Assembly (NCBI RefSeq): GCF_035084215.1
Contig: NC_090349.1
Span: forward strand, 24,614,001 to 24,678,000
Source: Heptranchias perlo
Taxonomy: Eukaryota
DNA: 64,000 nucleotides
Direction of reading: 5' to 3'
Shown one piece after another: positions 1 to 61,959 of this stretch (its first letter is position 1; every line of letters begins with the position of its first letter). Made by a program: the position numbers and the translations under genes. The notes beneath the pieces were generated by a model, which was not told where the DNA came from, ran no database searches, and saw only the letters and a list, made by a program, of their open reading frames with translations.

Positions 1-136
1 GTCTGACCTGGTCAAACTACATATTCTACTTCCACTTCTATGTCTGTAGGGACAACTACTAAGAGGTCTCCCTCTTTCATCTCTAATTGTAAACAATTTT
101 ACAACACCAAGTTATAGTCCAGCAATTTTATTTTAA

Positions 137-177
137 ATTCACAAGCTTTCGGAGATTTTCTCCTTCCTCAGGCAAAT
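137..177 (-). ncRNA. Minimal type I hammerhead ribozyme (inverted copy in Penelope arm)
   Basis: Reverse complement of 3393-3433. Confidence 0.7.
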
Positions 178-427
178 GTTTCAAGATCTCCTTGAAGCCT
201 ACGCATTTATACATATTGAACAATAAAACATGGTGTTTACAGACTGCCCCTGCAACTGCCCGTTGCCAAGGCAATCACCGTGTTCAGACAGAGAGGTGTT
301 ACCTGCAGAACCTCCGAATACACATTCAACAAAAAAACAAACAGGGAAAAAAAACAGAGAAAAGAAAAACACAGAGAGAGGCAGAAACATCCGGAAGGCA
401 GAGAGAGCCAGCAAATGACCCATTATA

Positions 428-1645
428 TTAAAAACAGATAACATTTGTTCGCTGGTGGGGTAACGTGTAGCGTGACATGAACCCAAGATCCCGGTTGAGG
501 CCGTCCTCATGGGTGCGGAACTTGGCTATCAATTTCTGCTCGACAATTTTGCGTTGTCGTGTGTCTCGAAGGCCGCCTTGGAGTACGCTTACCCGAAGGT
601 CGGTGGATGAATGTCCATGACTGCTGAAGTGTTCCCCGACTGGGAGGGAACCCTCCTGTTTGGCGATTGTTGCGCGGTGTCCGTTCATCCGTTGTCGCAG
701 CGTCTGCATGGTCTCGCCAATGTACCATGCTCTGGGGCATCCTTTCCTGCAACGTATGAGGTAGACAACGTTGGCTGAGTCACAGGAGTATGAACCATGC
801 ACCTGGTGGGTGGTGTCATCTCGTGTGATGGTGGTATCTGTGTCGATGATCTGGCATGTCTTGCAGAGGTTACCGTGGCAGGGTTGTGTGGCGTCGTGGA
901 CGCTGTTCTCTTGAAAGCTAGGTAGTTTGCTGCGAACGATGGTCTGTTTGAGGTTGGGTGGCTGTTTAAAGGCGAGTAGTGGAGGTGTGGGGATGGCCAT
1001 AGCGAGGTGTTTGTCCTCATTGATGACATGTTGAAGGCTGCGGAGAACATGGCGTAGTTTCTCCGCTCCGGGGAAGTACTGGACGACAAAGGGTACTCTG
1101 TTGGTTGCGTCCCGTGTTAGTCTCCTGAGGAGGTCTATGCGATTTTTTGCTGTGGCCCGTCGGAACTGTCGATCGATGAGTCGAGCGTCATATCCCGTTC
1201 TTACTAGGGCGTCTTTCAGCGTCTGTAGGTGTCCATCGCGTTCCTCCTCGTCTGAGCAGACCCTGTGTATTCGCAGGGCCTGTCCATAGGGGATGGCCTC
1301 TTTGACGTGGTTAGGGTGGAAGCTGGAAAAGTGGAGCATCGTGAGGTTGTCCGTGGGCTTGCGGTAGAGTGAGGTGCTGAGGTGCCCGTCTTTGATGGAG
1401 ATTCGTGTGTCCAAGAAAGAAACTGATTCTGAGGAGTAGTCCATGGTGAGCTTGATGGTGGGATGGAACTTGTTGATGTTATCGTGTAGTCTCTTTAGTG
1501 ATTCCTTGCCGTGGGTCCATAGAAAGAAAATGTCGTCGATGTATCTGGTGTATAGTGTTGGTTGGAGGTCTTGTGCAGTGAAGAAGTCCTGCTCGAACTT
1601 GTGCATGAAAATGTTGGCGTATTGGGGTGCGAATTTGGTCCCCAT
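428..1645 (-). CDS. Penelope RT (C-terminal part) plus GIY-YIG endonuclease, inverted-arm copy, 5'-truncated
   Basis: GTKFAPQYANIFM, YTRYIDDIF, LYRKPT, CxxC linker, VVYLIRC...YIGET...R...E...GLN; identical to the last 405 aa of 1742-3142. Confidence 0.9.
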   Translation of the reverse strand: MGTKFAPQYANIFMHKFEQDFFTAQDLQPTLYTRYIDDIFFLWTHGKESLKRLHDNINKFHPTIKLTMDYSSESVSFLDTRISIKDGHLSTSLYRKPTDNLTMLHFSSFHPNHVKEAIPYGQALRIHRVCSDEEERDGHLQTLKDALVRTGYDARLIDRQFRRATAKNRIDLLRRLTRDATNRVPFVVQYFPGAEKLRHVLRSLQHVINEDKHLAMAIPTPPLLAFKQPPNLKQTIVRSKLPSFQENSVHDATQPCHGNLCKTCQIIDTDTTITRDDTTHQVHGSYSCDSANVVYLIRCRKGCPRAWYIGETMQTLRQRMNGHRATIAKQEGSLPVGEHFSSHGHSSTDLRVSVLQGGLRDTRQRKIVEQKLIAKFRTHEDGLNRDLGFMSRYTLPHQRTNVICF

Positions 1646-1741
1646 GGCTGTTCCGTGTGTTTGGGTAAAGAACTGGTTATCGAAGGTGAAGACATTGTGA
1701 TCCAGGATGAAGCGGATGAGTTGTAGGATGGCTTCCGGAGA

Positions 1742-3142
1742 TTGGCTGTCTCGGCACTATACACCAGTATCCCCCACGATGACGGCATCGCTGCGACAGC
1801 ATCAATACTCAACACCAACAACAGCCAATCTCCGGAAGCCATCCTACAACTCATCCGCTTCATCCTGGATCACAATGTCTTCACCTTCGATAACCAGTTC
1901 TTTACCCAAACACACGGAACAGCCATGGGGACCAAATTCGCACCCCAATACGCCAACATTTTCATGCACAAGTTCGAGCAGGACTTCTTCACTGCACAAG
2001 ACCTCCAACCAACACTATACACCAGATACATCGACGACATTTTCTTTCTATGGACCCACGGCAAGGAATCACTAAAGAGACTACACGATAACATCAACAA
2101 GTTCCATCCCACCATCAAGCTCACCATGGACTACTCCTCAGAATCAGTTTCTTTCTTGGACACACGAATCTCCATCAAAGACGGGCACCTCAGCACCTCA
2201 CTCTACCGCAAGCCCACGGACAACCTCACGATGCTCCACTTTTCCAGCTTCCACCCTAACCACGTCAAAGAGGCCATCCCCTATGGACAGGCCCTGCGAA
2301 TACACAGGGTCTGCTCAGACGAGGAGGAACGCGATGGACACCTACAGACGCTGAAAGACGCCCTAGTAAGAACGGGATATGACGCTCGACTCATCGATCG
2401 ACAGTTCCGACGGGCCACAGCAAAAAATCGCATAGACCTCCTCAGGAGACTAACACGGGACGCAACCAACAGAGTACCCTTTGTCGTCCAGTACTTCCCC
2501 GGAGCGGAGAAACTACGCCATGTTCTCCGCAGCCTTCAACATGTCATCAATGAGGACAAACACCTCGCTATGGCCATCCCCACACCTCCACTACTCGCCT
2601 TTAAACAGCCACCCAACCTCAAACAGACCATCGTTCGCAGCAAACTACCTAGCTTTCAAGAGAACAGCGTCCACGACGCCACACAACCCTGCCACGGTAA
2701 CCTCTGCAAGACATGCCAGATCATCGACACAGATACCACCATCACACGAGATGACACCACCCACCAGGTGCATGGTTCATACTCCTGTGACTCAGCCAAC
2801 GTTGTCTACCTCATACGTTGCAGGAAAGGATGCCCCAGAGCATGGTACATTGGCGAGACCATGCAGACGCTGCGACAACGGATGAACGGACACCGCGCAA
2901 CAATCGCCAAACAGGAGGGTTCCCTCCCAGTCGGGGAACACTTCAGCAGTCATGGACATTCATCCACCGACCTTCGGGTAAGCGTACTCCAAGGCGGCCT
3001 TCGAGACACACGACAACGCAAAATTGTCGAGCAGAAATTGATAGCCAAGTTCCGCACCCATGAGGACGGCCTCAACCGGGATCTTGGGTTCATGTCACGC
3101 TACACGTTACCCCACCAGCGAACAAATGTTATCTGTTTTTAA
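1742..3142 (+). CDS. Penelope reverse transcriptase plus GIY-YIG endonuclease, 5'-truncated (the first codons are created by the inversion junction)
   Basis: 466-aa uninterrupted frame: VSALYTSIP, GTAMGTKFAPQYANIFM, RYIDD, PCHGNLCKTC, VVYLIRC/WYIGET (GIY-YIG), terminal GLN. Confidence 0.93.
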   Translation: MAVSALYTSIPHDDGIAATASILNTNNSQSPEAILQLIRFILDHNVFTFDNQFFTQTHGTAMGTKFAPQYANIFMHKFEQDFFTAQDLQPTLYTRYIDDIFFLWTHGKESLKRLHDNINKFHPTIKLTMDYSSESVSFLDTRISIKDGHLSTSLYRKPTDNLTMLHFSSFHPNHVKEAIPYGQALRIHRVCSDEEERDGHLQTLKDALVRTGYDARLIDRQFRRATAKNRIDLLRRLTRDATNRVPFVVQYFPGAEKLRHVLRSLQHVINEDKHLAMAIPTPPLLAFKQPPNLKQTIVRSKLPSFQENSVHDATQPCHGNLCKTCQIIDTDTTITRDDTTHQVHGSYSCDSANVVYLIRCRKGCPRAWYIGETMQTLRQRMNGHRATIAKQEGSLPVGEHFSSHGHSSTDLRVSVLQGGLRDTRQRKIVEQKLIAKFRTHEDGLNRDLGFMSRYTLPHQRTNVICF

Positions 3143-3392
3143 TATAATGGGTCATTTGCTGGCTCTCTCTGCCTTCCGGATGTTTCTGCCTCTCTCTGTG
3201 TTTTTCTTTTCTCTGTTTTTTTTCCCTGTTTGTTTTTTTGTTGAATGTGTATTCGGAGGTTCTGCAGGTAACACCTCTCTGTCTGAACACGGTGATTGCC
3301 TTGGCAACGGGCAGTTGCAGGGGCAGTCTGTAAACACCATGTTTTATTGTTCAATATGTATAAATGCGTAGGCTTCAAGGAGATCTTGAAAC

Positions 3393-3433
3393 ATTTGCCT
3401 GAGGAAGGAGAAAATCTCCGAAAGCTTGTGAAT
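3393..3433 (+). ncRNA. Minimal type I hammerhead ribozyme in Penelope pLTR
   Basis: ATTTGC-CTGAGGA-A-GGAG(AAAAT)CTCC-GAAA-GC-TT-GTGAAT: core CUGANGA...GAAA, 4-bp stem II, palindromic AAGCTT stem III, stem I ATTTGC/GTGAAT with G-U pairs. Confidence 0.72.
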
Positions 3434-4061
3434 TTAAAATAAAATTGCTGGACTATAACTTGGTGTTGTAAAATTGTTTACAATTGTCAACCCCAGTCCA
3501 TCACCGGCATCTCCACATCTTTCATCTCTAGTTCGCGATCGTTTTCTGAGGTGAGATTCACTTCCGGACTCCCTACCACTACTTGTACTCCACTTTCGTA
3601 CTCTCCACTCTTTTACCCCATTCTGCCAGCCCATGAACCTCGCTTCATGGCCATCATCCTGATCATTCAACCAAAATTTAAACCTACCAGTAGCTTTGCC
3701 AGCACTTCACAAAATTGTTGCGTCCCTCCATTCCTTAATCCCTTCTGGAACATATGTCACCTGTGTACCCACTTGGGGTAATTGTTCTGTGGATGTGATA
3801 GCTGTGTCATGTGTTTTTTGATCACTGACATTACCCACTGTGCAGCCCTTGATCTACCTCAGTCTGTACATCGGGAACCTCATCAGAAAAATCATAAACA
3901 TCTGAGGCACAAGGTGCCTCGTTTACTTCCATCAACTGCTCAGAGTCCGAGATTTTATAATTAATTCCAATTAATCGTGAGGAATGAACTTTAACAGTTT
4001 GATTGTCATGTTGAACAATTACTGTCTTAGCATCACAACCTATTACCTTACTAGGGTCTTT

Positions 4062-16739: not shown

Positions 16740-17801
16740 TCATACATTCATTGTTGACTCAGTCTGGGATTGATCACAGGTATTACAGACTGGTACGTTT
16801 TTTAGATGTTGATCCAAAACTAGTTCTCTTTTGGGCTCTCTTGGTTGAATTCCTTCACTCGTTGCTGATGTGAAAAGGTTTAAATTAAGAGGAACAAGAG
16901 CTTTCTTCAAAGTAACATTAAATGTCGAACTTGAGAAGTGATAAATAACTGGGTCGAGCACACTGTTCAGATATGTCATAAATAGTGTATTATAAAATAC
17001 CTGAACAGCTGTTTCATATGACTTGCAGTCTTCTCTGCGTCTTTGCTTTGTAATTACAACAGCGAGTAGAGCAATGTTTGTGGGCAAGAAACAAAATATA
17101 AAAACCGCTGCCACAGCTATCACAAGCTTTACTGCTCGTTTATGTTTACCCCTCATTTCAGTTTCCATCTGTTTTAACTTCCAGATGATACAGGACGTGG
17201 AGTACAGGATAATCGAAGCTGGTAAAATAAAATTGAAAAGACCAAAAACAATATCGGTCCAAATTGTCAGAGGATTTAGAGGCTGGTACATGTTGAAGGG
17301 CTCACAGTATGTCAGATTGTTGTGCTTGAAGTCGTGATGTTCTGTTAAAAGGTGCAAAGAAATTGTCACTGCTAGAATCCACAGAGCACCTGCTACCTTC
17401 ACTGCACATCTTGCAGGTATCTTGTTCATTTGATGGTGAGGGTGGACCACCTTAAAATAACGATCGATCGCCGTAGCTGTAAGGAAAACGATGCTCCCCA
17501 TCCGGTTTAGGGAAATAAAGAATTGATTCACACGACATGCAGCATCACCAAAAATCCAGTTCTTCTCCCGTACAAAGTAATCTGCTCGAAATGGTAAACA
17601 GCAGATGAGCAGAGTGTCTGCAATCGCCAGATTCAGTGAATAAACAGTATTTGGTTTAAAGGACTTTGTATGAAAACAAAAGATCCATAAAGCAATTACA
17701 TTTCCGATGAATCCAAGGATAAATGTTATAATAATTACTGGTGGATTATAGGACGAATTAATGTCTTCAACAGAAGTACATTGCTGGGTCTCGTTGGCCA
17801 T
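16740..17801 (-). CDS. Hydroxycarboxylic acid receptor (HCAR2/3-like) class A GPCR, copy 1, 353 aa
   Basis: GNVIALWIFCFH, LNLAIAD, CLPFRADY, WIFGD..CR, NRMGSIVFLT (R3.36), DRYFKVVHPHH, CFLP, TYLNSVLDPVIY; ATG at 17801 in strong Kozak context ACAATGG. Confidence 0.93.
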   Translation of the reverse strand: MANETQQCTSVEDINSSYNPPVIIITFILGFIGNVIALWIFCFHTKSFKPNTVYSLNLAIADTLLICCLPFRADYFVREKNWIFGDAACRVNQFFISLNRMGSIVFLTATAIDRYFKVVHPHHQMNKIPARCAVKVAGALWILAVTISLHLLTEHHDFKHNNLTYCEPFNMYQPLNPLTIWTDIVFGLFNFILPASIILYSTSCIIWKLKQMETEMRGKHKRAVKLVIAVAAVFIFCFLPTNIALLAVVITKQRRREDCKSYETAVQVFYNTLFMTYLNSVLDPVIYHFSSSTFNVTLKKALVPLNLNLFTSATSEGIQPREPKRELVLDQHLKNVPVCNTCDQSQTESTMNV

Positions 17802-17871
17802 TGTAGGCAATATTACAGTAAACTCAGTCACAGGCACAGAAATGAGTTAATTAACTGAATGATGCACAACG

Positions 17872-28250: not shown

Positions 28251-29303
28251 TCATTGTTGACTCAGTCTGGCATTGATCACAGGTATTACGTTTTTTACGT
28301 TTTTTAGATGTTGATCCACAACTAGTTCTCTTTTCTGCTCTCTTGGTTGAATTCCTTCACTCGTTGCTGATGTGAAAAGGTTTAAATTAAGAGGAACAAG
28401 AGCTTTCTTCAAAGTAACATTAAATGTCGAACTTGAAAAGTGATAAATAACTGGGTCGAGCACACTGTTCAGATATGTCATAAATAGTGTATTATAAAAT
28501 ACCTGAACAGCTGTTACATATGACTTGCAGTCTTCTCTGCGTCTTTGCTTTGTAATTACCACAGCGAGTACAGCAATGTTTGTGGGCAAGAAACAAAATA
28601 TAAAAACTGCTGCCACAGCTATCACAAGCTTTACTGCTCGTTTATATTTACCCCTCATTTCAGTTTCCATCTGTTTTAACTTCCAGATGATACAGGACGT
28701 GGAGTACAGGATAATCGAAGCTGGTAAAATAAAATTGAAAAGAATAAAAACAATATCGGTCCAAATTGTCAGAGGATTTAGAGGCTTGTACATGTTGAAG
28801 GGCTCACAGTATGTCAGATTGTTGTGCTTGAAGTCGTGAGGTTCTGTTAAAATGTGCAAAGAAATTGTCACTGCTAGAATCCACAGAGCACCTGCTACCT
28901 TCACTGCACATCTTGCAGGTATCTTGTTCATTTGATGGTGAGGGTGGACCACCTTAAAATAACGATCGATCGCGGTAGCTGTCAGGAAAACAATGCTCCC
29001 CATCCGGTTTAGGGAAATAAAGAATACATTCAGACGACATGCAACATCACCAAAAATCCAGTTCTTCTCCCGTACAAAGTAATCTGCTCGAAATGGTAAA
29101 CAGCAGATGAACAGAGTGTCTGCAATCGCCAGATTCAGTGAATAAACAGTATTTGGTTTAAAGGACTTTGTATGAAAACAAAAGATCCATAAAGCAATTA
29201 CATTTCCGATGAATCCAAGGATAAATGTTATAATAATTACTGGTGGATTATAGGACGAATTAATGTCTTCAACAGAAGTACATAGCTGGGTCTCGTTGGA
29301 CAT
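28251..29303 (-). CDS. HCAR2/3-like GPCR copy 2, 350 aa, with a frameshifted C-terminal tip
   Basis: Same motifs as copy 1; ATG at 29303; ends KNVKNVIPVINARLSQQ*. Confidence 0.92.
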   Translation of the reverse strand: MSNETQLCTSVEDINSSYNPPVIIITFILGFIGNVIALWIFCFHTKSFKPNTVYSLNLAIADTLFICCLPFRADYFVREKNWIFGDVACRLNVFFISLNRMGSIVFLTATAIDRYFKVVHPHHQMNKIPARCAVKVAGALWILAVTISLHILTEPHDFKHNNLTYCEPFNMYKPLNPLTIWTDIVFILFNFILPASIILYSTSCIIWKLKQMETEMRGKYKRAVKLVIAVAAVFIFCFLPTNIAVLAVVITKQRRREDCKSYVTAVQVFYNTLFMTYLNSVLDPVIYHFSSSTFNVTLKKALVPLNLNLFTSATSEGIQPREQKRELVVDQHLKNVKNVIPVINARLSQQ

Positions 29304-30595
29304 TGTCGGCAATATTACAGTAAACTCAGTCACAGGCACAGAAATGAGTTAATTAACTGAATGATGCACAACGTTATATAGAATTCTTCCACTTTACATC
29401 ATAGATCATGGGTGGGGCTATAATAAAGTCAGACTATTTATCGAGTTATATCGTAAACCTGCCAGCAATTCTACTAGAATACCTTCAATATGCATTTACA
29501 GATAAATCATTCAAACTATACACCAAACCTATGCAAATATATCAGGCTTTGAATTTGGCTGGAGACGTTATGATAACATAAAACTGTATGGTCCTACTCA
29601 TTTTGCCTTCATAGATTCACCCAAAGAGGAAATGCTGTAATATTCCTTTTATCTGCCTTTTTAGAAATTTTGCAATCCATGCTCACTGTCAAGTTTTCAT
29701 TACTGAAATCAAAAAAATATTCAGCTGAGATGGTTATCTACCTCGATATAACCTGCTGATGAGAATGAATTTTATTTTGTAGAAGCTCTTTTTAGTGGAT
29801 TTGTGTCTGGTCCTTAATTTGCAACAGTTCTGAAGCCTTGCAAGAAAAAGTGTTGGTAACTTCCTGCCACACATTCACAGGAGATAAGTGGCTCTTCTGT
29901 CCTCTCTCCACCACAACATCTTTTGCTAATTTTTCTTTTCCTTCAGAAATCATAGAATGGTAACAAGATGGCTTCATGAGGTTTAACGCTTCTGAAATAA
30001 GTGAAAAGGACTATGGGTTGGTACTGTTGCCTCAACTGTACAGTGCGTTCGGCAATTGGGCAGTGTGATTTTAGCACACTTGCAATATAACACTGTGAAT
30101 TTTTGCAAAATCAGTGGTGTGTTGTCGGTAGTGACAGCTCCGTGATGAACTGACTTTGCTGCACTTGTATTAATGCATCCAGTACTCTCCTGATGGTAGT
30201 GAATCGTGATAGGGTACGGATTCATTCTTCAAATTTGAATCCCACATTAAGTGCTGGCAGGATATTATATGGTGTTGGATGGCAGGGTACCAGCAGACAA
30301 ACCCAAATCTGTCCTCACCCAGTTGCCACACAAACAGGCCTAGAAATTCAATCACGTCCAAAAACGGGCACACAGTGTTGTGCACTGCACGCGCCTTTTC
30401 AAGTTATACCAGGCTGCACGTTAAATTGATGCAGGTGTGCGGGTAGTGCGACCTATGCTATTCATTTGCTGCACGCCTCTTTGGCAGGTCTGGATATCGG
30501 ATGTCTCTGACACCACTTAAAGGCAGCCAGCAACTCTTAAAGGGGAGGTGCACTCTGGCAGCAGACAGCAGGAAGCGCCTGCTGTAAGGAGAGAA

Positions 30596-41526: not shown

Positions 41527-42588
41527 TCATACATTCATTGTTGACTCAGTCTGGTATTGATCACAGGTATTACAGACCGGTACGTTTTTTAGATGTTGAT
41601 CCACAACTAGTTCTCTTTTGGGCTCTCTTGGTTGAATTCCTTCACTCGTTGCTGATGTGAAAAGGTTTAAATTAAGAGGAACAAGAGCTTTCTTCAAAGT
41701 AACATTAAATGTCGAACTTGAAAAGTGATAAATAACTGGGTCGAGCACACTGTTCAGATATGTCATAAATAGTGTATTATAAAATACCTGAACAGCTGTT
41801 TCATATGACTTGCAGTCTTCTCTGCGTCTTTGCTTTGTAATTACCACAGCGAGTACAGCAATGTTTGTGGGCAAGAAACAAAATATAAAAACTGCTGCCA
41901 CAGCTATCACAAGCTTTACTGCTCGTTTATATTTACCCCTCATTTCAGTTTCCATCTGTTTTAACTTCCAGATGATAAAGGACGTGGAGTACAGGATAAT
42001 CGAAGCCGGTAAAATAAAATTGAAAAGAATGAAAACAATATCGGTCCAAATTGTCAGAGGATTTAGAGGCTTGTACATGTTGAAGGGCTCACAGTATGTC
42101 AGATTGTTGTGCTTGAAGTCGTGAGGTTCTGTTAAAATGTGCAAAGAAATTGTCACTGCTAGAATCCACAGAGCACCTGCTACCTTCACTGCACATCTTG
42201 CAGGTATCTTGTTCATTTGATGGTGAGGGTGGACCACCTTAAAATAACGATCGATCGCCGTAGCTGTAAGGAAAACGATGCTCCCCATCCGGTTTAGGGA
42301 AATAAAGAATAGATTCAGACGACATGCAACATCACCAAAAATCCAGTTCTTCTCCCGTACAAAGTAATCTGCTCGAAATGGTAAACAGCAGATTAGCAGA
42401 GTGTCTGCAATCGCCAGATTCAGTGAATAAACAGTATTTGGTTTAAAGGACTTTGTATGAAAACAAAAGATCCATAAAGCAATTACATTTCCGATGAATC
42501 CAAGGATAAATGTTATAATAATTACTGGTGGATTATAGGACGAATTAATGTCTTCAACAGAAGTACATTGCTGGGTCTCGTTGGCCAT
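41527..42588 (-). CDS. HCAR2/3-like GPCR copy 3, 353 aa
   Basis: Same motifs; ATG at 42588. Confidence 0.93.
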   Translation of the reverse strand: MANETQQCTSVEDINSSYNPPVIIITFILGFIGNVIALWIFCFHTKSFKPNTVYSLNLAIADTLLICCLPFRADYFVREKNWIFGDVACRLNLFFISLNRMGSIVFLTATAIDRYFKVVHPHHQMNKIPARCAVKVAGALWILAVTISLHILTEPHDFKHNNLTYCEPFNMYKPLNPLTIWTDIVFILFNFILPASIILYSTSFIIWKLKQMETEMRGKYKRAVKLVIAVAAVFIFCFLPTNIAVLAVVITKQRRREDCKSYETAVQVFYNTLFMTYLNSVLDPVIYHFSSSTFNVTLKKALVPLNLNLFTSATSEGIQPREPKRELVVDQHLKNVPVCNTCDQYQTESTMNV

Positions 42589-43865
42589 TGTAGGCAATAT
42601 TACAGTAAACTCAGTCACAGGCACAGGAATGAGTTAATTAACTGAATGATGCACAACGTTATATAGAATTCTTCCACTTTACATCATAGATCATGGGTGG
42701 GGCTATAATAAAGACAGACTATTTATCGAGTTATATCGTAAACCTGCCAGCAATTCTACTAGAATACCTTCAATATGCATTTACAGATAAATCATTCAAA
42801 CTATACACCAAACCTATGCAAATATATCAGCCTTTGAATTTGGCTGGAGATTTTATGATAACATAAAACTGTATGGTCCTACTCATTTTGCCTTCCTGGA
42901 TTCACCCAAAGAGGAAATGCTGCAATGTTCCTTTTATCTGACTTGTTGGACATTTTGCAATCCATGCTCACTGTCAAGTTTTCATTACCGAAATCAAAAA
43001 ACTATTCAGCAGAGATGGTTATCTACCTCTATATAACCTGCTGATGAGAATTAATTTTATTTTGTAGAAGCTAATTTTAGTGGATTTGTGTCTGTTCCTT
43101 AATTTGCAACAGTTCTGAAGCCTTGCAAAAAAAAGTGTTGGTAACTTCCTGCCACACATTCACAGGAGGTAAGTGGCTCTTCTGTCCTCTTTCCACCACA
43201 ACATCCTTTGCTAATTTTGCTTTTCCTTCAGAAATCATAGAATGGTAACAAGATGGCTTCATGTGGTTTAACGCTTCTGAAACATGGGTTGGTAATGTTG
43301 CTCAACTGGACAGTGCGTTCGGCAATTGGGCAGTGTGATTTTTACACACTCGCAGTATAACACTGTGAATTTTTCCAAAATCAGTAGTGTGTTGTCGGTA
43401 GTGACAGCACTGTGATGAACTGACTTTGCTGCACTTGTATTAATGCATCCAGTACTCTCCTGATGGTAGTGAATCGTGATAGGGTACGGATTCATTCTTC
43501 AAATTTGAATCCCACATTAAGTGCTGGCAGGGTATTATATGGTGTTGGATGGCAGGGTACCAGCAGACAAACCCAAATCTGTCCTCACCCAGTTGCCACA
43601 CAAACAGGCCAAGAAATTCAATCACGTCTAAAAACGGGCACACAGTGGTGTGCACTGCACGCGCCTTTTCAAGTTATACCAGGCTGCACGTTAAATTGAT
43701 GCAGGTGTGCGGGTAGTGCGACCCATGCTATTCATTCACTGCATGTCTCTTTGGCAGGTCCGGATATCGGATGTCTCTGACACCACTTCAAGGCAGCCAG
43801 CAACTCTTAAAGGGGAGGTGCACTCTGGCAGCAGACAGCAGGAAGCGCCTGCTGTAAGGAGAGAA

Positions 43866-45033: not shown

Positions 45034-47832
45034 TCCTGTGTTATAAATCGGATAGCCAGGTGTTGAAGGATAGAATACTAGAGCTGAGTCTTCCATTGCT
45101 TCCACGCCTTTATTCACAAAGCTCCACATTACACCCACAGCAAACACTAGATCAGCTCGCTTATAAATGGATACGAGAGTTCCCAATTCATATGCAGTAC
45201 CTGAATACAGTTAACTCCAGTTGATATAAATCACATGAATACAATTAACAGATTCTCTTCTCCCTCTTTAAATAAAAAAAATAAACTTTATATACACAAT
45301 ACAAACAAAAATTTGAAAATTCAAAAACTTCCATTCTCTGTATAACTTATACTATTCAAAGCATTACATTGTGAGGCGACCCTTCTCCAGGACCCGTAAT
45401 AATTTCTTCATACATCTACTTCTTTTAGTAAAACAATCCAACAGTTGATAGCTTGAATCCACCCATTTAATTTGAGAGATTTCCTTTCTCTCCAGCATTT
45501 GTTTCAAGCCAGCAAGATCAATCCGTAATCTTTTTCACTCACATTTTTTGTAGAGTGTACATTAACCCACAATGAATGATTTCTACATAACATTCAATGG
45601 GTATAGTATCTTCAGTACTCCCATTGTACAGGATGTCACTCAAGATATTTGCCAAATAGAATCCTATATCCAGTGCGTCGACAAGAGCCAGTGTTTCAGC
45701 AGCCAGAGTACTTTTAACAACCCTTTTTATTTTCCTGGCTTCCCAAGCTGGAGGACAACATTTCCCATTCTTCCCCATAAGAAACACTCTGATACCAGCT
45801 GCACTAGAATACCCATCAGGAAGATTAGCATGTGAAGCATCACTAAAAATAACGAACTTCATTTTCTTTGCCTCACCTAAGGATGGAAACTTAAGTACCC
45901 ATTTGTCTATATTTAATTTTTTGTAATGTTTTATTAGCCCGTAAAGCATTCTCGGCTATGGGGTGTTTTGTTGAAGCACTTAACTCCAATACATCAAAAC
46001 TGGCATCTGGTCTAGTCTGAGTGCACAAACAGTTCAACTGACCAATCAAGCTTCGTAATAGCTCCGTCTCTTCTTTCGATATAACATCACCATTCTGAGA
46101 TGACCTAGTACGATTCACCGGGACGGGAGTAGCACTCTCATGAACATGTTGCCAATAGAGCCAAAAAGATTTTTAAGATTACTTTTCCAGCAGTGTGAGA
46201 ATCCACTTGGACATCTGTATCACCCAGTTTCTCTTCAAAACCCCTCGCTACCAACCTCACTTTAGCTGAAAAGTCCCATCTGCAAGGACTTTTGCAGTAC
46301 AAACCCACCAATGCGACAAAGCTGGTTGACCCTTATGTTACCTCAGAATAAACTCCAAATTTGTTCCAACTGTCTCACTCCCTTCATTTTGCCTCTCATA
46401 CTCGTTCATCCTCAAGTTTATTGGCAGCACCCAAAACTTCACGATCATGAAGACTTCTTCTTCTAGTTCTGTTACGTGACTGTTCTGTAGTCTTTGTTTC
46501 ATTGTCTGACCTGGTCAAGCTACATATTCTACTTCCATTTCTATGTCTGTAGGGACAACTACTAAGAGATCTCCCTCTTTCATTTCTTGTTCGCAATTGT
46601 TTTCTCAGGTGAGATTCACTTCCGGACTCCCTATCACTACTTGTACTCCACTTTCGTACTCTCCACTCTTTTACCCCATTCTGCCAGCCCATGAACCTCG
46701 ATTCATGGCCATCATCCTGATCATTCAACCAAAATTTAAACCTACCAGTAGCTTTGCTGGCACATCCCAAAATTGTTGCGTCCCTCCATTCATTAGTCCC
46801 TCTGGAACATATGTCACCTGTGTACCCACTTTGGGTAATTGTTCTGTGGATGTGATAGCTGTGTCATGTGTTTCTTGATCACTGACATTACCACTGTCCA
46901 GCCCTTGATCGACCTCAGTCTGTACATCAGAACCTCATCAGTAAAATCATAAACATCTGAGGCAAAAGGTGCCTCATTTACTTCCATCAACTGCTCAGAG
47001 TCCGAGATTTTATAATTAATTCCAATTCATCGTGAGGAATGAACCTTAACAAGTTTGATTGCCTTGTTGGACAATTACTGTCTTACTATCACAACCTATT
47101 ACCTCATCAGGGTCTTTCCATTCCCTATGGCCCTCTCTTTTATAGTATATCAAATCTCCTGAATTGAACTCTGTTTCAGATGGTCTAATAAGATGCCTCA
47201 GTGCTCTACAAATTTCCTCTGATACCTCTGCCTTGATAAAAGCCTGTCTCTCAGCATGCAGAACATTTAAATGCTCAAAAAAAATGGCACTAATTGTCGT
47301 ATCTTCTAGAGCAGGAGGATTATCACAAAGAACACAAGGTAATTTGGGAGTGCGCCCACAGACTAGTTGGTAAGCATTATATCTTTCAACCATCTGAAGA
47401 GAATTCTTTGCATGAACTGACCATGCGAGGGCAGTTGACAATTTACACATTGTGCGATCAGCCAAAATTTTATGCACCATGCTATCAACCACAGCATGAT
47501 TACTTTCACAAAGACCAATGCTTAAAGAGCTGTCAGCTGCTGTATTCATGACAATTATATTCATATTTTCACACATAACTCTGAACTCCGCTTCAGCGAA
47601 TTCACCTCCATTATTGGTCAAAAACTTTGCTGGTGTCCCAAGCCCAGTCCTTATCCATTTTTCCATAATTTTATCGAGAATAACCTTCTTCTCTTTACTA
47701 TATATTAGTGTAGAAATACTAAATCTTGTCGCCAGGTCAATAAAATGTAAGATGAAATCATTTCTGTCTTTGCCCCATACCTTTAGATTCATGGCAACTA
47801 CTCTGAACCTTATTGCCTGATGCTATTAATAC

Positions 47833-51600: not shown

Positions 51601-51634
51601 GACACTTAGGCCTAGATTTACCTTTAAAAAACTG

Positions 51635-51807
51635 TAAACAATTTTACAACACCAAGTTGTAGTCCAGCAATTTTATTTTAAATTCACAAGCTTTCGGAGG
51701 AAGCCTCCGAAAGCTTGTGAATTTAAAATAAAATTGCTGGACTATAACTTGGTGTTGTAAAATTGTTTACAATTATCAACCCCAGTCCATCACCGGCATC
51801 TCCACAT
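51635..51807 (+). mobile_element. Miniature Penelope insertion: 68-bp hairpin plus tail
   Basis: Arms 51633-51700/51704-51771 (1 mismatch), loop AAG, tail ending CAACCCCAGTCCATCACCGGCATCTCCACAT, 13-bp TSD CTTTAAAAAACTG at 51622-51634/51808-51820. Confidence 0.92.
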
Positions 51808-52566
51808 CTTTAAAAAACTGCCCATTTTCTGGCATGTTTAAAGGCAGTCTGGCAAGTAAAATGGAATGCAGGAGCTCTCTGACACAACTCCACCTCTTAA
51901 AAGAGCCACCATGATTTCCCTCCCATGACACCTCTGTGATGCTGATCCGCCCACTGCAAGTGCATCGCGCCGCAGGATGCATGGCCAAGTGCCCCCGCCC
52001 CCACCCCAGCCCCAGAGATTGTCCTGTGTTTGTGTAGATGCAAATGGTGTCACTCAAGATCACATCTCACCTCGTTAACTGTTGAATTACTTTGGGCGCC
52101 TATGACCCTGTTACTTGATAAACAACCAACAAAGACAGTCAATCTAGGGAAAGATAACAAGTACAGGGAAGTCACACTTCACACTAGACAGAACACAGAA
52201 ATCTGTGTGAAATCAAGCTTTGATGGGAGAAATGTCACACATGGTTTGAGTGAATAAAGACACAGCAATCTTTGTGGGGAAATGGCCGTTTCAAAGCCAG
52301 TTGCCTTTAAGTGGTGTTTGAATGGCAGATAGAGACGATCAGTATGTATTAAATAGGTTTCAGTGTCCAGAGTATGAGGAAAAGGTGGCATAAAGGGACC
52401 ATGCTTTGCCTGTTAGTTGTGTACAATACTGAAGCTGCTGTCTCTACTGTACTCATTCCAGCCTACCTCTGGATACAAAGAACGTATATCTATGTTTGAT
52501 TGTACCCTATTTGTTCAAACTGCTTTTAATAAAGGATAGAGTTTCTTTTAATTGGAAGAAGTTGAG

Positions 52567-53334: not shown

Positions 53335-53497
53335 CAAGCCTACTGTATTCTGCTTACGACAAGCATTTGTTAACATAGAAGACGATCACCTTCGTTAACA
53401 ACAATAACGAGGATGTGGAGATGCCGGTGATGGACTGGGGTTGACAATTGTAAACAATTTTACAACACCAAGTTATAGTCCAACAATTTTATTTGAA

Positions 53498-53538
53498 ATT
53501 CACAAGCTTTCGGAGGCTTCCTCCTTCCTCAGGTGAAT
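53498..53538 (-). ncRNA. Minimal type I hammerhead ribozyme in Penelope pLTR
   Basis: Reverse complement reads ATTCAC-CTGAGGA-A-GGAGG(AAG)CCTCC-GAAA-GC-TT-GTGAAT. Confidence 0.75.
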
Positions 53539-53803
53539 GTTGTGGAAATGAAATCCTCGAACCCTTCGCATTTATAAATCACAGAACAATACCTGGTGAT
53601 TACAGATAGTCTTTCCAACTGCCCGTTGCCAAGGCAATCACAGTGTGCAGACAGAGAGGTGTTACCGACAAGGCCACCGAATATACAAACACCCAAAAAA
53701 CAAAGAGAGAGAGAGGCAGAAACATAGAAACATCCGGAAGGAAGAGAAACACAGCAAATGACCCGTTATATTAAAAACAGATAACATTTGTTCGCTGGTG
53801 GGG

Positions 53804-55640
53804 TTACGTGTAGCGTGACATGAACCCAAGATCCCGGTTGAGGCCGTCCTCATGGGTGCGGAACTTGGCTATCAATTTCTGCTCGACGATTTTGCGTTGT
53901 CGTGTGTCTCGAAGGCCGCCTTGGAGTATGCTTACCCAAAGGTCGGTGGCTGAATGTCCTTGACTGCTGAAGTGTTCCCCGACTGGGAGGGAACCCTCCT
54001 GTCTGGCGATTGTTGCGCGGTGTCCGTTCATCCGTTGTCACAGCGTCTGCATGGTCTCGCCAATGTACCATACTCTGGGGCATCCTTTCCTGCAATGTAT
54101 GAGGTAGACAACGTTGGCCGAGTCACAGGAGTATGAACCATGCACCTGGTGGGTGGTGTCCTCTCGTGTGATGGTGGTATCTGTGTCGATGATCTGGCAT
54201 GTCTTGCCGAGGTTACTGTGGCAGGGTTGTGTGGTGTCGTGGACGCTGTTCTCCTGAAAGCTGGGTAATTTGCTGCGAACGATGGTCTGTTTGAGGTTGG
54301 GTGGCTGTTTAAAGGCGAGTAGTAGAGGTGTGGGGATGGCCATAGCGAGGTGTTCGTCGTCATTGATGACATGTTGAAGGCTGCGGAGAACATGGCGTAG
54401 TTTCTCCGCTCCGGGGAAGTACTGGACGACGAAGGGTACTCTGTTGGTTGCGTCCCGTGTTAGTCTTCTGAGGAGGTCTATGCGATTTTTCGCTGTGGCC
54501 CGTCGGAACTGTCAATCGATGAATCGAGCGTCATATCCCGTTCTTACTAGGGCGTCTTTCAGCGTCTGTAGGTGTCCATCGCGTTCCTCCTCGTCTGAGC
54601 AGACCCTGTGTATTCGCGGGGCCTGTCCATAGGGGATGGCCTCTTTGACGTGGTTAGGGTGGAAGCTGGAAAAGTGGAGCATCGTGAGGTTGTCCGTGGG
54701 CTTGCGGTAGAGTGAGGTGCTGAGGTGCCTGTCTTTGATGGAGATTCGTGTGTCCAAGAAAGAAACTGATTCTGAGGAGTAGTCCATGGTGAGCTTGATG
54801 GTGGGATGGAACTTGTTGATGTTATCGTGTAGTCTCTTTAGTGATTCCTCGCCGTGGGTCCATAGAAAGAAAATGTCATCGATGCATCTGGTGTATAGTG
54901 TTGGTTGAAGGTCCTGTGCAGTGAAGAAGTCCTGCTCGAACTTGTGCATGAAAATGTTGGCGTATTGGGGTGCGAATTTGGTCCCCATGGCTGTTCCGTG
55001 TGTTTGGGTAAAGAACTGGTTATCGAAGGTGAAGACATTGTGATCCAGGATGAAGCGGATGAGTTGTAGGATGGCGTCTGGAGATTGGCTGTTGTTGGTG
55101 TTGAGTATTGATGCTGTCGCAGCGATGCCGTCATCGTGGGGGATACTGGTGTAGAGTGCCGAGACGTCCATCGTGGTGAGAAGTGTTCCTGGTTCAACTG
55201 GTCTGTGGGTACTGAGTTTTTGTCGGAAGTCTGTAGTGTCGCGACAGAAGCTGGGGGTTCACTGTACGATGGGTTTCAGGATGCCCTCGATGTATCCAAA
55301 GAGGTTCTCACACAGGGTTCCGTTGCCTGATACGATAGGACGTCCGGGTGTGTTGGCTTTGTGTATCTTTGGGAGGCAGTAGAAGTACGTGGGATGAGAG
55401 CGCGTAGGATGCTTTGAAGGTCTGGATCGAAGGTCTTGATCAGTTTGTTGAGCTGGTGGGTGTGTTCTTTGGTCGGATCTACAGGTAACCGTCTGTAGTG
55501 ATCCTGGTTGTCCAGTTGTCGGTATGCTTCTTTGCAATTGTCCGTTCTGTTTTGTATGACGATGGCTCCTCCTTTGTCCGCTGGTTTGATGACGATGTTG
55601 CGGTTGGTCTTGAGAGCGTTGATGGCGTTGTGCTCGGGTG
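53804..55640 (-). pseudogene. Penelope RT-GIY-YIG ORF, disrupted
   Basis: Fragments 55276-55740, 55259-55537, 54512-55171, 54038-54343 and 53804-54031; YIDD mutated to CIDD. Confidence 0.88.
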
Positions 55641-56398
55641 ACATTCTGGACTGTCTTCTGAGTGCGGCTGAGTGCCAGCTTTCAGGAGAACAGCGTCCAT
55701 GACACCACACAACCCTGCCACGGTAACCTCTGCAAGACATGCCAGATCATCAACACAGATACCACCATCACACGAGAGGACACCACCCACCAGGTGCATG
55801 GTTCATACTCCTGTGATTCGGCCAACGTTGTCTACCTCATACGTTGCAGGAAAGGATGCCCCAGAGCATGGTACATTGGCGAGACCATGCAGACGCTGCG
55901 ACAACGGATGAACGGACACCGCGCAACCATCGCCAGACAGGAGGGTTCCCTCCCAGTCGGGGAACACTTCAGCAGTCAAGGACATTCAGCCACCGACCTT
56001 CGGGTGAGCATACTCCAAGGCGGCTTCGAGACACACGACAACGCAAAATCGTCGAGCAGAAATTGATAGCCAAGTTCCGCACCCATGAGGACGGCCTCAA
56101 CTGGGATCTTGGGTTCATGTCACGCTACACATAACCCCACCAGCGACAAATGTTAACTGTTTTTAATATAACGGGTCATTTGCTGTGTTTCTCTTCCTTC
56201 CGGATGTTTCTATGTTTCTGCCTCTCTCTCTCTTTGTTTTTTGGGTGTTTGTATATTCAGTGGCCTTGTAGGTAACACCTCTCTGTCTGCACACTGTGAT
56301 TGCCTTGGCAACGGGCAGTTGGAAAGACTATCTGTAATCACCAGGTATTGTTCTGTGATTTATAAATGCGAAGGGTTCGAGGATTTCATTTCCACAAC

Positions 56399-56439
56399 AT
56401 TCACCTGAGGAAGGAGGAAGCCTCCGAAAGCTTGTGAAT
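56399..56439 (+). ncRNA. Minimal type I hammerhead ribozyme (inverted-arm copy)
   Basis: ATTCAC CTGAGGA A GGAGG AAG CCTCC GAAA GC TT GTGAAT; perfect 6-bp stem I and 5-bp stem II. Confidence 0.75.
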
Positions 56440-56494
56440 TTCAAATAAAATTGTTGGACTATAACTTGGTGTTGTAAAATTGTTTACAACAATA

Positions 56495-60022: not shown

Positions 60023-61084
60023 TCATACATTCATTGTTGACTCAGTCTGGCATTGATCACAGGTATTACAGACCGGTGCCTTTTTTAGATGTTGATCCAC
60101 AACTAGTTCTCTTTTGGGCTCTCTTGGTTGAATTCCTTCACTCGTTGCTGATCTGAAAAGGCTTAAATTAAGAGGAACAAGAGCTTTCTTCAAAGCATCT
60201 TTAAATGTCGAACTTGAAAAATAGTAAATGACTGGGTCGAGCACACTGTTCAGATATGTCACAAATAGCGTATTATAAAATACATGAACAGCTGTTTCAT
60301 ATGATTTGCAGTCTTCTGTGGCTCTTTGCTTTGTAATTATAACAGCGAGTACAGCAATGTTTGTGGGCAAGAAACAAAATATAAAAACCGCTGCCACAGC
60401 TATCACAAGCTTTACTGCTCGTTTATATTTACCCCTCATTTCAGTTTCCATCTGTTTTAACTTCCAGATGATGCAGGACGTGGAGAACAGGATAATCGAA
60501 GCTGGTAAAACAAACTTGAAAAGAATAAAAACAGTGTCGGTCCAAATTGTCAGAGGATTTCCACGCTGGTATACGTTGAAGGGCTCACAGTATGTCAGAT
60601 TGTTGTGCTTGAAGGTGTGCGGTTCTGACAAAAGGTGTGAACAAATTGCCACTGCTAGAATCCACAGAGCACCTGCTACCTTCACTGCACATCTTGTAGG
60701 TATCTTGTTCACTTTATGGTGAGGGTGGACCACCTTAAAATAGCGATCGATCGCCGTAACTGTAAGGAAAACGATGCTCCCTACCCGGTTTAGGGAAATC
60801 AAAAATACCTTCAGACGACATGCAACATCGCCAAAAATCCAGTTCTTCTCCCGTACGAAGTAATCTGCTCGAAATGGTAAACAGCAGATGAGCAGAGTGT
60901 CTGCAATCGCCAGATTCAGTGAATAAACAGTATTTGGTTTCCAGGATTTTGCATGAAAACAAAAGATCCATAAAGCAATTACATTTCCAATGAATCCGAG
61001 AATAAATGTTATAATAATTACTGGTGGATTGTAGGACGAATGAATGTCTTCAACAGACGCACAAAACTGGGTCTCGTTGTCCAT
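60023..61084 (-). CDS. HCAR2/3-like GPCR copy 4 (most divergent), 353 aa
   Basis: Same motifs; retains HCAR-like KSWK and DPVIYYFSS; ATG at 61084. Confidence 0.93.
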   Translation of the reverse strand: MDNETQFCASVEDIHSSYNPPVIIITFILGFIGNVIALWIFCFHAKSWKPNTVYSLNLAIADTLLICCLPFRADYFVREKNWIFGDVACRLKVFLISLNRVGSIVFLTVTAIDRYFKVVHPHHKVNKIPTRCAVKVAGALWILAVAICSHLLSEPHTFKHNNLTYCEPFNVYQRGNPLTIWTDTVFILFKFVLPASIILFSTSCIIWKLKQMETEMRGKYKRAVKLVIAVAAVFIFCFLPTNIAVLAVIITKQRATEDCKSYETAVHVFYNTLFVTYLNSVLDPVIYYFSSSTFKDALKKALVPLNLSLFRSATSEGIQPREPKRELVVDQHLKKAPVCNTCDQCQTESTMNV

Positions 61085-61959
61085 TGTAGGCAGTATTGCA
61101 GTAAACTCAGTCACAGGCACAGAAATGAGTTAATTAACTGAATGATGCACAACCTTATATAGTACTCTTCCACTCTACATCATAGATCATAGGTGGGGCT
61201 ATAATAGTCATAATATTAAACGAGTTATATTATAAACTTACCAGCAATACTCCTAAATACCTTAAATATGCATTTACAGCGAAATCATTCAATTTATGCA
61301 GCAAACCTATTAGAATATGTCAGGCTTTGAATTTGGCTGTTTGTTAAGGTATTATCAGAACTTTGTGGTTTACAACATAAAACTGTATGTTTCTATTTAT
61401 TTTGTATTGAGTACATTCACCTCTTTTCGTAGAAAAAAATTCAGTCACGTTACTTTTAACTGCTTTGTTAGATAGAAGTTTTGCAATCCATGTTCACTGT
61501 CAAGGTTTCTTTCCCGGTATCGGAAAATTAAATCCTATAAACTACTGATGGGAATGAGTATGAAAGGGGATTTGAGACTGAATTGTTTTGTAGAAAAGGC
61601 ACTTTTCGACTGATGTGATTCTTGACCTGACGTTGCTTCTCCCCGGCGATGTGCTTTGTGAAAAACTTTTCCCTAACAAATCATAGAACTGTAATTAAAA
61701 TAGCATCAGATTGTTTTGCTCTTCTAAAGCGACATGGGCTGGCAATGTAGCCTCAGTTGTACTGTGTGTTTGGCAATGTGATTTTTCCACACTCGAAGTA
61801 TGATCTATTTCCAATAGTGACGCCATCTTGAAGAGATAGCCTCACACCACCGGTCTTACTGTATGTAGAGCCCTCCTCTCCCGAAGGAAGCGAATCATGA
61901 TAGGGGTTCGGTTCCATGTGCCTCTTTTCGCATTTAAATCTAAGTGTTGACAGGTTATT

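Follow-up and report, generated by a model that had tools for sequence, protein, structure and literature searches.

Minimal hammerhead ribozymes in the pLTRs of metazoan Penelope-like elements (PLEs), those of fish included, were described by Cervera and De la Pena (2014; PMC4209133). According to the text of that paper, these motifs carry an extra base between positions 9 and 10.1, a G10.1-C11.1 pair and a palindromic 15.2-16.2, fall into covarying families, and are inactive as monomers and weak as dimers; the review PMC6765202 refers hammerhead dimer cleavage to Lunse et al. 2017. In PAc (Poseidon_Ac) of Anolis carolinensis, cleavage is reported to be protein-assisted and insertion to proceed from uncut RNA, and that study saw no RNA-seq ends at the cut and defined the tail by a pair of start sites (Frangieh et al., 2024; PMC11167929). 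Craig et al. (2021; PMC8557442) state that a CX2-5CxxC linker marks Neptune and Nematis PLEs and that EN+ PLEs have inverted 5'-truncated arms and a one-sided tail of 30-40 bp. Here we describe a pLTR hammerhead of Heptranchias perlo that has been kept paired across subfamilies and that likely cleaves no more than weakly after U3427, and only as a dimer or with the element's protein, a reading to which we assign a probability of roughly 0.7.

Four complete motif cores were found in the window, the whole stretch of 64,000 nucleotides that was analyzed (147-171 and 53508-53532 on the minus strand, 3399-3423 and 56405-56429 on the plus strand). They belong to the arms of two inverted insertions, and a third, mini insertion carries a partial motif. 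The 41-base hammerhead motif that the preliminary description had placed at 3393-3433, and its second copy at 56399-56439, are both present, and the core held there to be constant (CTGAGGA with GAAA) recurs in 4/4 complete window copies. The motifs, and the parts of copy 1, are as follows.

137-177, minus strand: hammerhead motif with the sequence of copy 1, on the inverted left arm of element 1
3393-3433, plus strand: minimal type I hammerhead motif, copy 1 (sequence and predicted fold)
3393-3398 (ATTTGC) and 3428-3433 (GTGAAT): stem I of copy 1
3399-3405: core CTGAGGA of copy 1
3406: extra A of copy 1
3407-3419: stem II hairpin of copy 1, strands 3407-3411 and 3415-3419 (GGAGA and TCTCC), loop AAA
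3420-3423: GAAA of copy 1, G12 to A15.1
3424-3427: GCTT of copy 1, with GC at 3424-3425, U16.1 at 3426 and U17 at 3427
3427/3428: predicted cut in copy 1
53498-53538, minus strand: hammerhead motif with the sequence of the copy at 56399, on the inverted left arm of element 2
56399-56439, plus strand: hammerhead motif representing the second subfamily, on the right arm of element 2

Stem II had been said to lengthen between the subfamilies, from GGAG/CTCC with loop AAAAT to GGAGG/CCTCC. In the predicted fold, however, the stem II of copy 1 already has 5 bp (GGAGA/TCTCC, loop AAA), so that the fifth pair is swapped from A-U to G-C on both sides. For stem I, the pairing with GTGAAT is kept as claimed, but the change is one-sided only, G-U to A-U and U-G to C-G. 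The extra A after A9 was correctly noted; it lies at 3406 and is invariant in 16/16 aligned haplotypes. Together with the palindromic 15.2-16.2 and dimer cleavage, it is an already published hallmark of these ribozymes (Cervera 2014, PMC4209133). As far as the text of that paper describes them, its motifs further share with ours the type I architecture, the want of a real helix III, an unpaired base between 9 and 10.1, G10.1-C11.1, a helix I that is short, single copies scattered by the thousand and many variant families per genome, while helix II has 4-5 bp here versus 7-8 bp in Schistosoma.

Within the window, a loose core pattern gave 16 matches versus 6.5 expected, a number reached by 1 of 100 shuffles. 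Single-copy folding was not significant (z -1.1 to -1.7), and stem I of copy 1 was displaced in the predicted fold of a 141-nt context. A hammerhead covariance-model scan (Rfam), the kind of check that had been proposed, returned no hammerhead among its 9 matches in the window at E ≤ 10; the microRNA matches in that scan were rejected, as they are really the inverted junctions of insertions.

The preliminary description had also assigned the motif to the pLTR of a Penelope element, and this agrees with an RVT_1 match, a GIY-YIG-type motif, and the anatomy of the pLTR and tail. The host insertions, each built of two 5'-truncated arms set head to head within a target duplication, comprise the following parts.

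85-3519: element 1, one inverted insertion made up of a pair of 5'-truncated arms placed head to head (85-1869, minus strand; 1701-3519, plus strand)
1727-3142, plus strand: 5'-truncated ORF, 471 aa from stop to stop, with RT thumb, CX4CX2C linker and GIY-YIG-type endonuclease
3143-3392, plus strand: T-rich 3' UTR portion of the pLTR, diverging fast (76% identity with that of element 2)
3434-3519, plus strand: conserved pLTR end, of which 3486-3519 is an optional tail present on one arm only
about 51630-51809: mini inverted insertion with its junction within stem II, no CUGANGA core and a target duplication of ~13 bp
53413-56489: element 2, an inverted insertion of the second subfamily, with the tail on the left arm only and a target duplication with a mismatch

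Element 1 is flanked by a 13-bp target duplication, its left arm ending at +58 and its right arm at +92 past the predicted cut. The frame at 1727-3142 matches RVT_1, and its last 460 aa are identical to the end of a full ORF of 902 aa at another locus (L061). The 902-aa ORF matches RVT_1 with an E value of 3e-10, contains the motifs DKG, YIDD and VVYLIRC...WYIG and the CX4CX2C linker CHGNLCKTC at aa 753, and has as Atlas neighbours (0.96-0.98) animal RT proteins with RVT_1 and, in part, GIY-YIG. A direct match of this ORF to Pfam GIY-YIG was absent at E ≤ 0.1, and a PDB sequence search with the ORF gave no match. Judged from its sequence, the host is an EN+ PLE with a single ORF predicted to encode an RT together with a C-terminal GIY-YIG-type endonuclease. 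The linker appears to be of the Neptune/Nematis type, and the clade placement is read from this linker motif only. With Neptune-clade EN+ PLEs, as the text of PMC8557442 presents them, the element shares the RT, the CX2-5CxxC linker, the C-terminal GIY-YIG domain, partial tandems, inverted arms and the tail. Our literature search on PLEs of cartilaginous fish returned nothing relevant.

The motif follows the ORF stop by ~250 nt and precedes the ATG of the next unit by 92 nt; in tandem copies this ATG directly follows the pLTR end (3519), and one pattern matches 902 such junctions. Two loci hold at least three head-to-tail motifs at a spacing of 3,081-3,083 nt with intact 902-aa ORFs, and from such arrays several motifs could end up on a single transcript. 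Of 278 candidate matches to the 189-nt pLTR end, 40 were scored, and every one of these was 100% identical; thus the subfamily is young. The window copies themselves are 5'-truncated inverted arms and probably inert, since each arm has one same-strand motif and no 5' ORF. The flanking UTRs of the two subfamilies had been described as different, and the 76% identity between elements 1 and 2 bears this out. Beyond the two, ORF ends are 98-99.6% identical but 3' UTRs only 61-76% identical (window 3143-3392 compared with loci L066, L145, L259 and L065), which suggests either the exchange of UTR modules or very fast UTR evolution. Very short inverted insertions are common, at 51630-51809 of the window and at many genome loci, and their junction microhomology is formed by the complementary stems of the motif. 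Opposite-strand motif pairs 30-70 bp apart are also numerous among the genome-wide matches.

In the 3.25-Gb genome, 78,154 matches to a tighter pattern end in U17 versus 166 in C or A, and reversed controls of the pattern gave 2 matches for the U17 form and 1 for the C/A form. From these numbers, U17 is the standard of the family and not a decay of copy 1. CUU had been called an unusual triplet; here it is the family norm, and it is also covered by the NUH rule of cleavage, which admits H = U although GUC is best (PMC2238771, as far as its text was accessible). In the literature text that could be searched, nothing usable on U17 in hammerheads of PLEs turned up, and the feature may be in print. 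The accessible text of PMC6155905 and PMC11875169 added nothing on U17. The ~78,000 copies compare with ~4,000 in coelacanth and ~9,000 in Xenopus in the text of PMC4209133, the searches differing between the two studies.

The proposed covariation was checked in a larger set. Twenty-three haplotypes were seen with at least two different flanks, in addition to 62 singletons, and 16 of the 23 were aligned; of the other seven, most were near-duplicates of aligned rows or came from both arms of a single insertion, and one had a T-C mismatch in stem II. The 16 haplotypes stay paired across subfamilies, as the preliminary description had led one to expect: 94.3% of stem cells pair, a value reached by 0 of 500 shuffles, and slid controls gave 22-49%. 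Three pairs changed on both sides, a number that 44 of 500 shuffles reached; for covariation the score was 0.207, reached by 14 of 500. Eight inner pairs are paired in 16/16 rows, and all recurrent changes there keep pairing. In stem I the inner four pairs are kept in 16/16 rows and the outer two are broken in 2 and 5 rows; in stem II the fifth pair is open in 3/16 rows, and G10.1-C11.1 is G-C throughout (16/16). Two-step paths are visible in both, through U-A, U-G and C-G in stem I and through A-U, G-U and G-C in stem II. The sole variable core position is N7 (G or C), the one that the hammerhead leaves free, the invariance of the core being partly built into the search patterns. Where the 3' side of stem II pair 3 is C, 97 of the first 100 listed (2,607 copies) have G opposite, and they form essentially one lineage, which differs from its sister at 9/43 motif positions and 18/238 UTR positions while all eight inner pairs are kept. 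Because the substitution events are few and related, the support from covariation is good but is not that of a formal test.

The motif persists over 18 UTR clusters (90 arms) that are 11-72% apart, counting gaps, and cores are intact at 85/87 loci, a partly circular figure given that many loci were picked by core patterns. The likeness to contigs from four sequencing runs, each of a different other organism, starts at 3397-3398, and the sequence upstream of it is unlike. Recombination between subfamilies exactly at the cut was considered and dropped as not localisable, the invariant stretch there being without markers.

Among 72 arms with the tail type of the window, 36 end at +43 to +65 (peak at 56-58), 35 at +90 to +103, and one runs on. 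Opposite arms could be paired in 21 cases; 14 of these have a target duplication of 12-14 bp and combine one short with one long end, and the remainder comprise one duplication of 10 bp, one of 16 bp, and five cross-pairings of nested insertions. By analogy with PAc, we infer that the arm ends may reflect two starts of reverse transcription downstream of the motif, one per strand of a staggered cut. If reverse transcription starts there, every such cDNA must cross the motif.

If templates were cut, genomic copies should begin at the cut, and we sought this fossil trace. Counted by eye, 23 of the first 100 listed of 511 matches starting from -5 to 0 begin at position 0, and 12, 15, 11, 9 and 30 begin at -1, -2, -3, -4 and -5, respectively; for starts from 0 to +9, 12 of the first 100 listed of 1,611 matches begin at position 0. 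A script applied to the first 30 of each listing gave 7 (-5 to 0) and 4 (0 to +9) at that position. Allowing for pattern misses, the arms that start at the cut are estimated at 300-400, ~0.5% of the read-through copies. No clear spike of 5' truncations was seen at the predicted cut among the matches listed, versus 78,154 read-through copies. Similarly, 0/30 ORF-start junctions begin at the cut; 19 extend past it and 11 stop short, the nearest lying at 88 and 97 nt versus 92. By these counts, a pile-up of 5' ends of the kind that cut RNA would leave is not seen, and the RNA copied into the genome was therefore likely uncut or re-ligated.

The absence of ends at the cut is in line with the result on Anolis PAc, and, according to the text of PMC11167929, that element also shares with ours a hammerhead at the pLTR-ORF junction and two preferred 3' ends ~35 nt apart. 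The ORF of PAc begins within stem II, with initiation 111-118 nt inside that ORF; unlike PAc, the present element has its ATG 92 nt after the cut, a tail that ends at the ATG, and the CX4CX2C linker. In the mechanism that we favor, two motifs on a tandem transcript would pair through A15.1-G-C-U16.1 and so form stem III between the copies. The paired motifs would be cut after U17, resolving tandem transcripts into units, probably with help from the element's protein. Starting near +56 and +92, downstream of the motif, reverse transcription would run through it, and the RNA that is inserted would be uncut or re-ligated at the predicted cut.

Nearest-neighbor energies of the dimer (-13.7 and -22.9 kcal/mol) versus those of two monomers (-14.6 and -23.8 kcal/mol) do not favor dimerization, and the cofold optimum is another structure, at -21.4 kcal/mol where the dimer has -13.7 kcal/mol. 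When A14-U17 pairs are added, the dimer reaches -16.3 and -25.5 kcal/mol, so that in both copies the 6-bp AAGCUU pairing gains 2.6 kcal/mol in stability over the 4-bp catalytic stem III. This difference speaks for a fold that no longer cleaves, locked inactive by A14-U17 pairing and serving to bind protein or to position reverse transcription, as do the missing genomic trace of ends at the cut, a downstream tail conserved as well as the motif, and the report that ribozyme mutants of PAc still insert in vitro (text of PMC11167929). We nevertheless consider such a fold unlikely, because N7, loop II and the stems drift but the letters of the catalytic core do not, as one would expect of a catalyst; moreover, an NUH triplet with H = U is cleavable (PMC2238771, in the text accessible), and cleavage followed by re-ligation would likewise leave no truncation spike. 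A related idea is that the fixed U17 acts as a brake, A14 pairing with the U17 of the partner in the AAGCUU palindrome so that the dimer stays inactive until the element's protein releases it. We regard this as doubtful; if true, it would explain how a selected ribozyme is read through in >99% of ~80,000 insertions.

At the other extreme, the ribozyme might work efficiently in vivo, with tandem transcripts cut and the units ligated into circles that template more-than-unit cDNA, a model put forward in the text of PMC4209133. Circles would explain both the read-through and the arrays, such as those of three 3,083-nt units, present at two loci, and the 404-bp one, in which ten motifs are intact; however, linear tandem transcripts or unequal recombination explain the arrays equally well, and linear cut templates are not seen as truncations at the cut among the matches listed, so that we find this model rather improbable. 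Least credible of all is a chance look-alike spread by transposition, its apparent covariation being shared ancestry. The weak folding z-scores, the small number of independent substitution events and the choice of samples by core patterns would fit it, but the motif occupies the very place published for PLE hammerheads, conservation begins at its edge across divergent UTR clusters and four other organisms, and the recurrent changes in the eight inner pairs preserve pairing without exception.

Other features of the genome and the window were recorded alongside. The genome contains a second hammerhead family, with CG at 15.2-16.2, C17 and a 7-bp stem I. This family heads tandem units of ~8-9 kb close to each end of contig C1 (~0.93-1.02 Mb and 198.12-198.27 Mb; L196-L203 and L276-L278), each with a 754-aa frame ending in a GDSN motif, which we take to be SGNH-like, a 744-aa frame of RT and GIY-YIG type, and TTAGGG-repeat blocks; by sequence these units would be a telomere-repeat-associated, Neptune-like PLE. 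Older decayed hammerhead-like motifs at scattered loci (L205, L213, L214, L218) end in CGAAACATT or CGAAATGTT (background ~613/1,565), consistent with CpG decay of a CG-palindrome family. The 404-bp tandem array lies at 21272856-21276682 of contig C2 (L281:3357-7183), and its unit, which joins 278 nt from the pLTR to the initial 128 nt of the ORF, is 99% identical to the parent element. The array looks like a newborn retrozyme: it resembles the PLE-derived non-LTR retrozymes (bioRxiv 10.64898/2026.07.22.740005, in its accessible text) in being an array of pLTR-derived units with intact motifs, but unlike them it is a single locus and still close to its parent, and the window copies form no such arrays. 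Elsewhere in the window, four minus-strand frames of 365-368 aa lie in large repeated blocks (16740-17846, 28251-29348, 41527-42633 and 60023-61129), of which that at 16740-17846 is a rhodopsin-family GPCR (7tm_1, E 2e-48). The frame at 47046-47822 (minus strand), also in repeated blocks, has a weak match to an integrase core (rve, E 6e-5, below the cut-off) and is probably a decayed piece of an LTR element.

This work adds one PLE hammerhead family to the class described in 2014. What hammerheads do in EN+ PLEs is still described as unclear in the text of PMC8557442, and the present element has value as test material, being young and of very high copy number, with intact ORFs, natural pair-preserving variants and a fixed U17. 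With its intact 902-aa ORF, compensatory variants and ten-motif array, the role of a PLE hammerhead becomes directly testable, and its genomic record gives a large-sample hint that RNA does not stay cut at the ribozyme when it is inserted.
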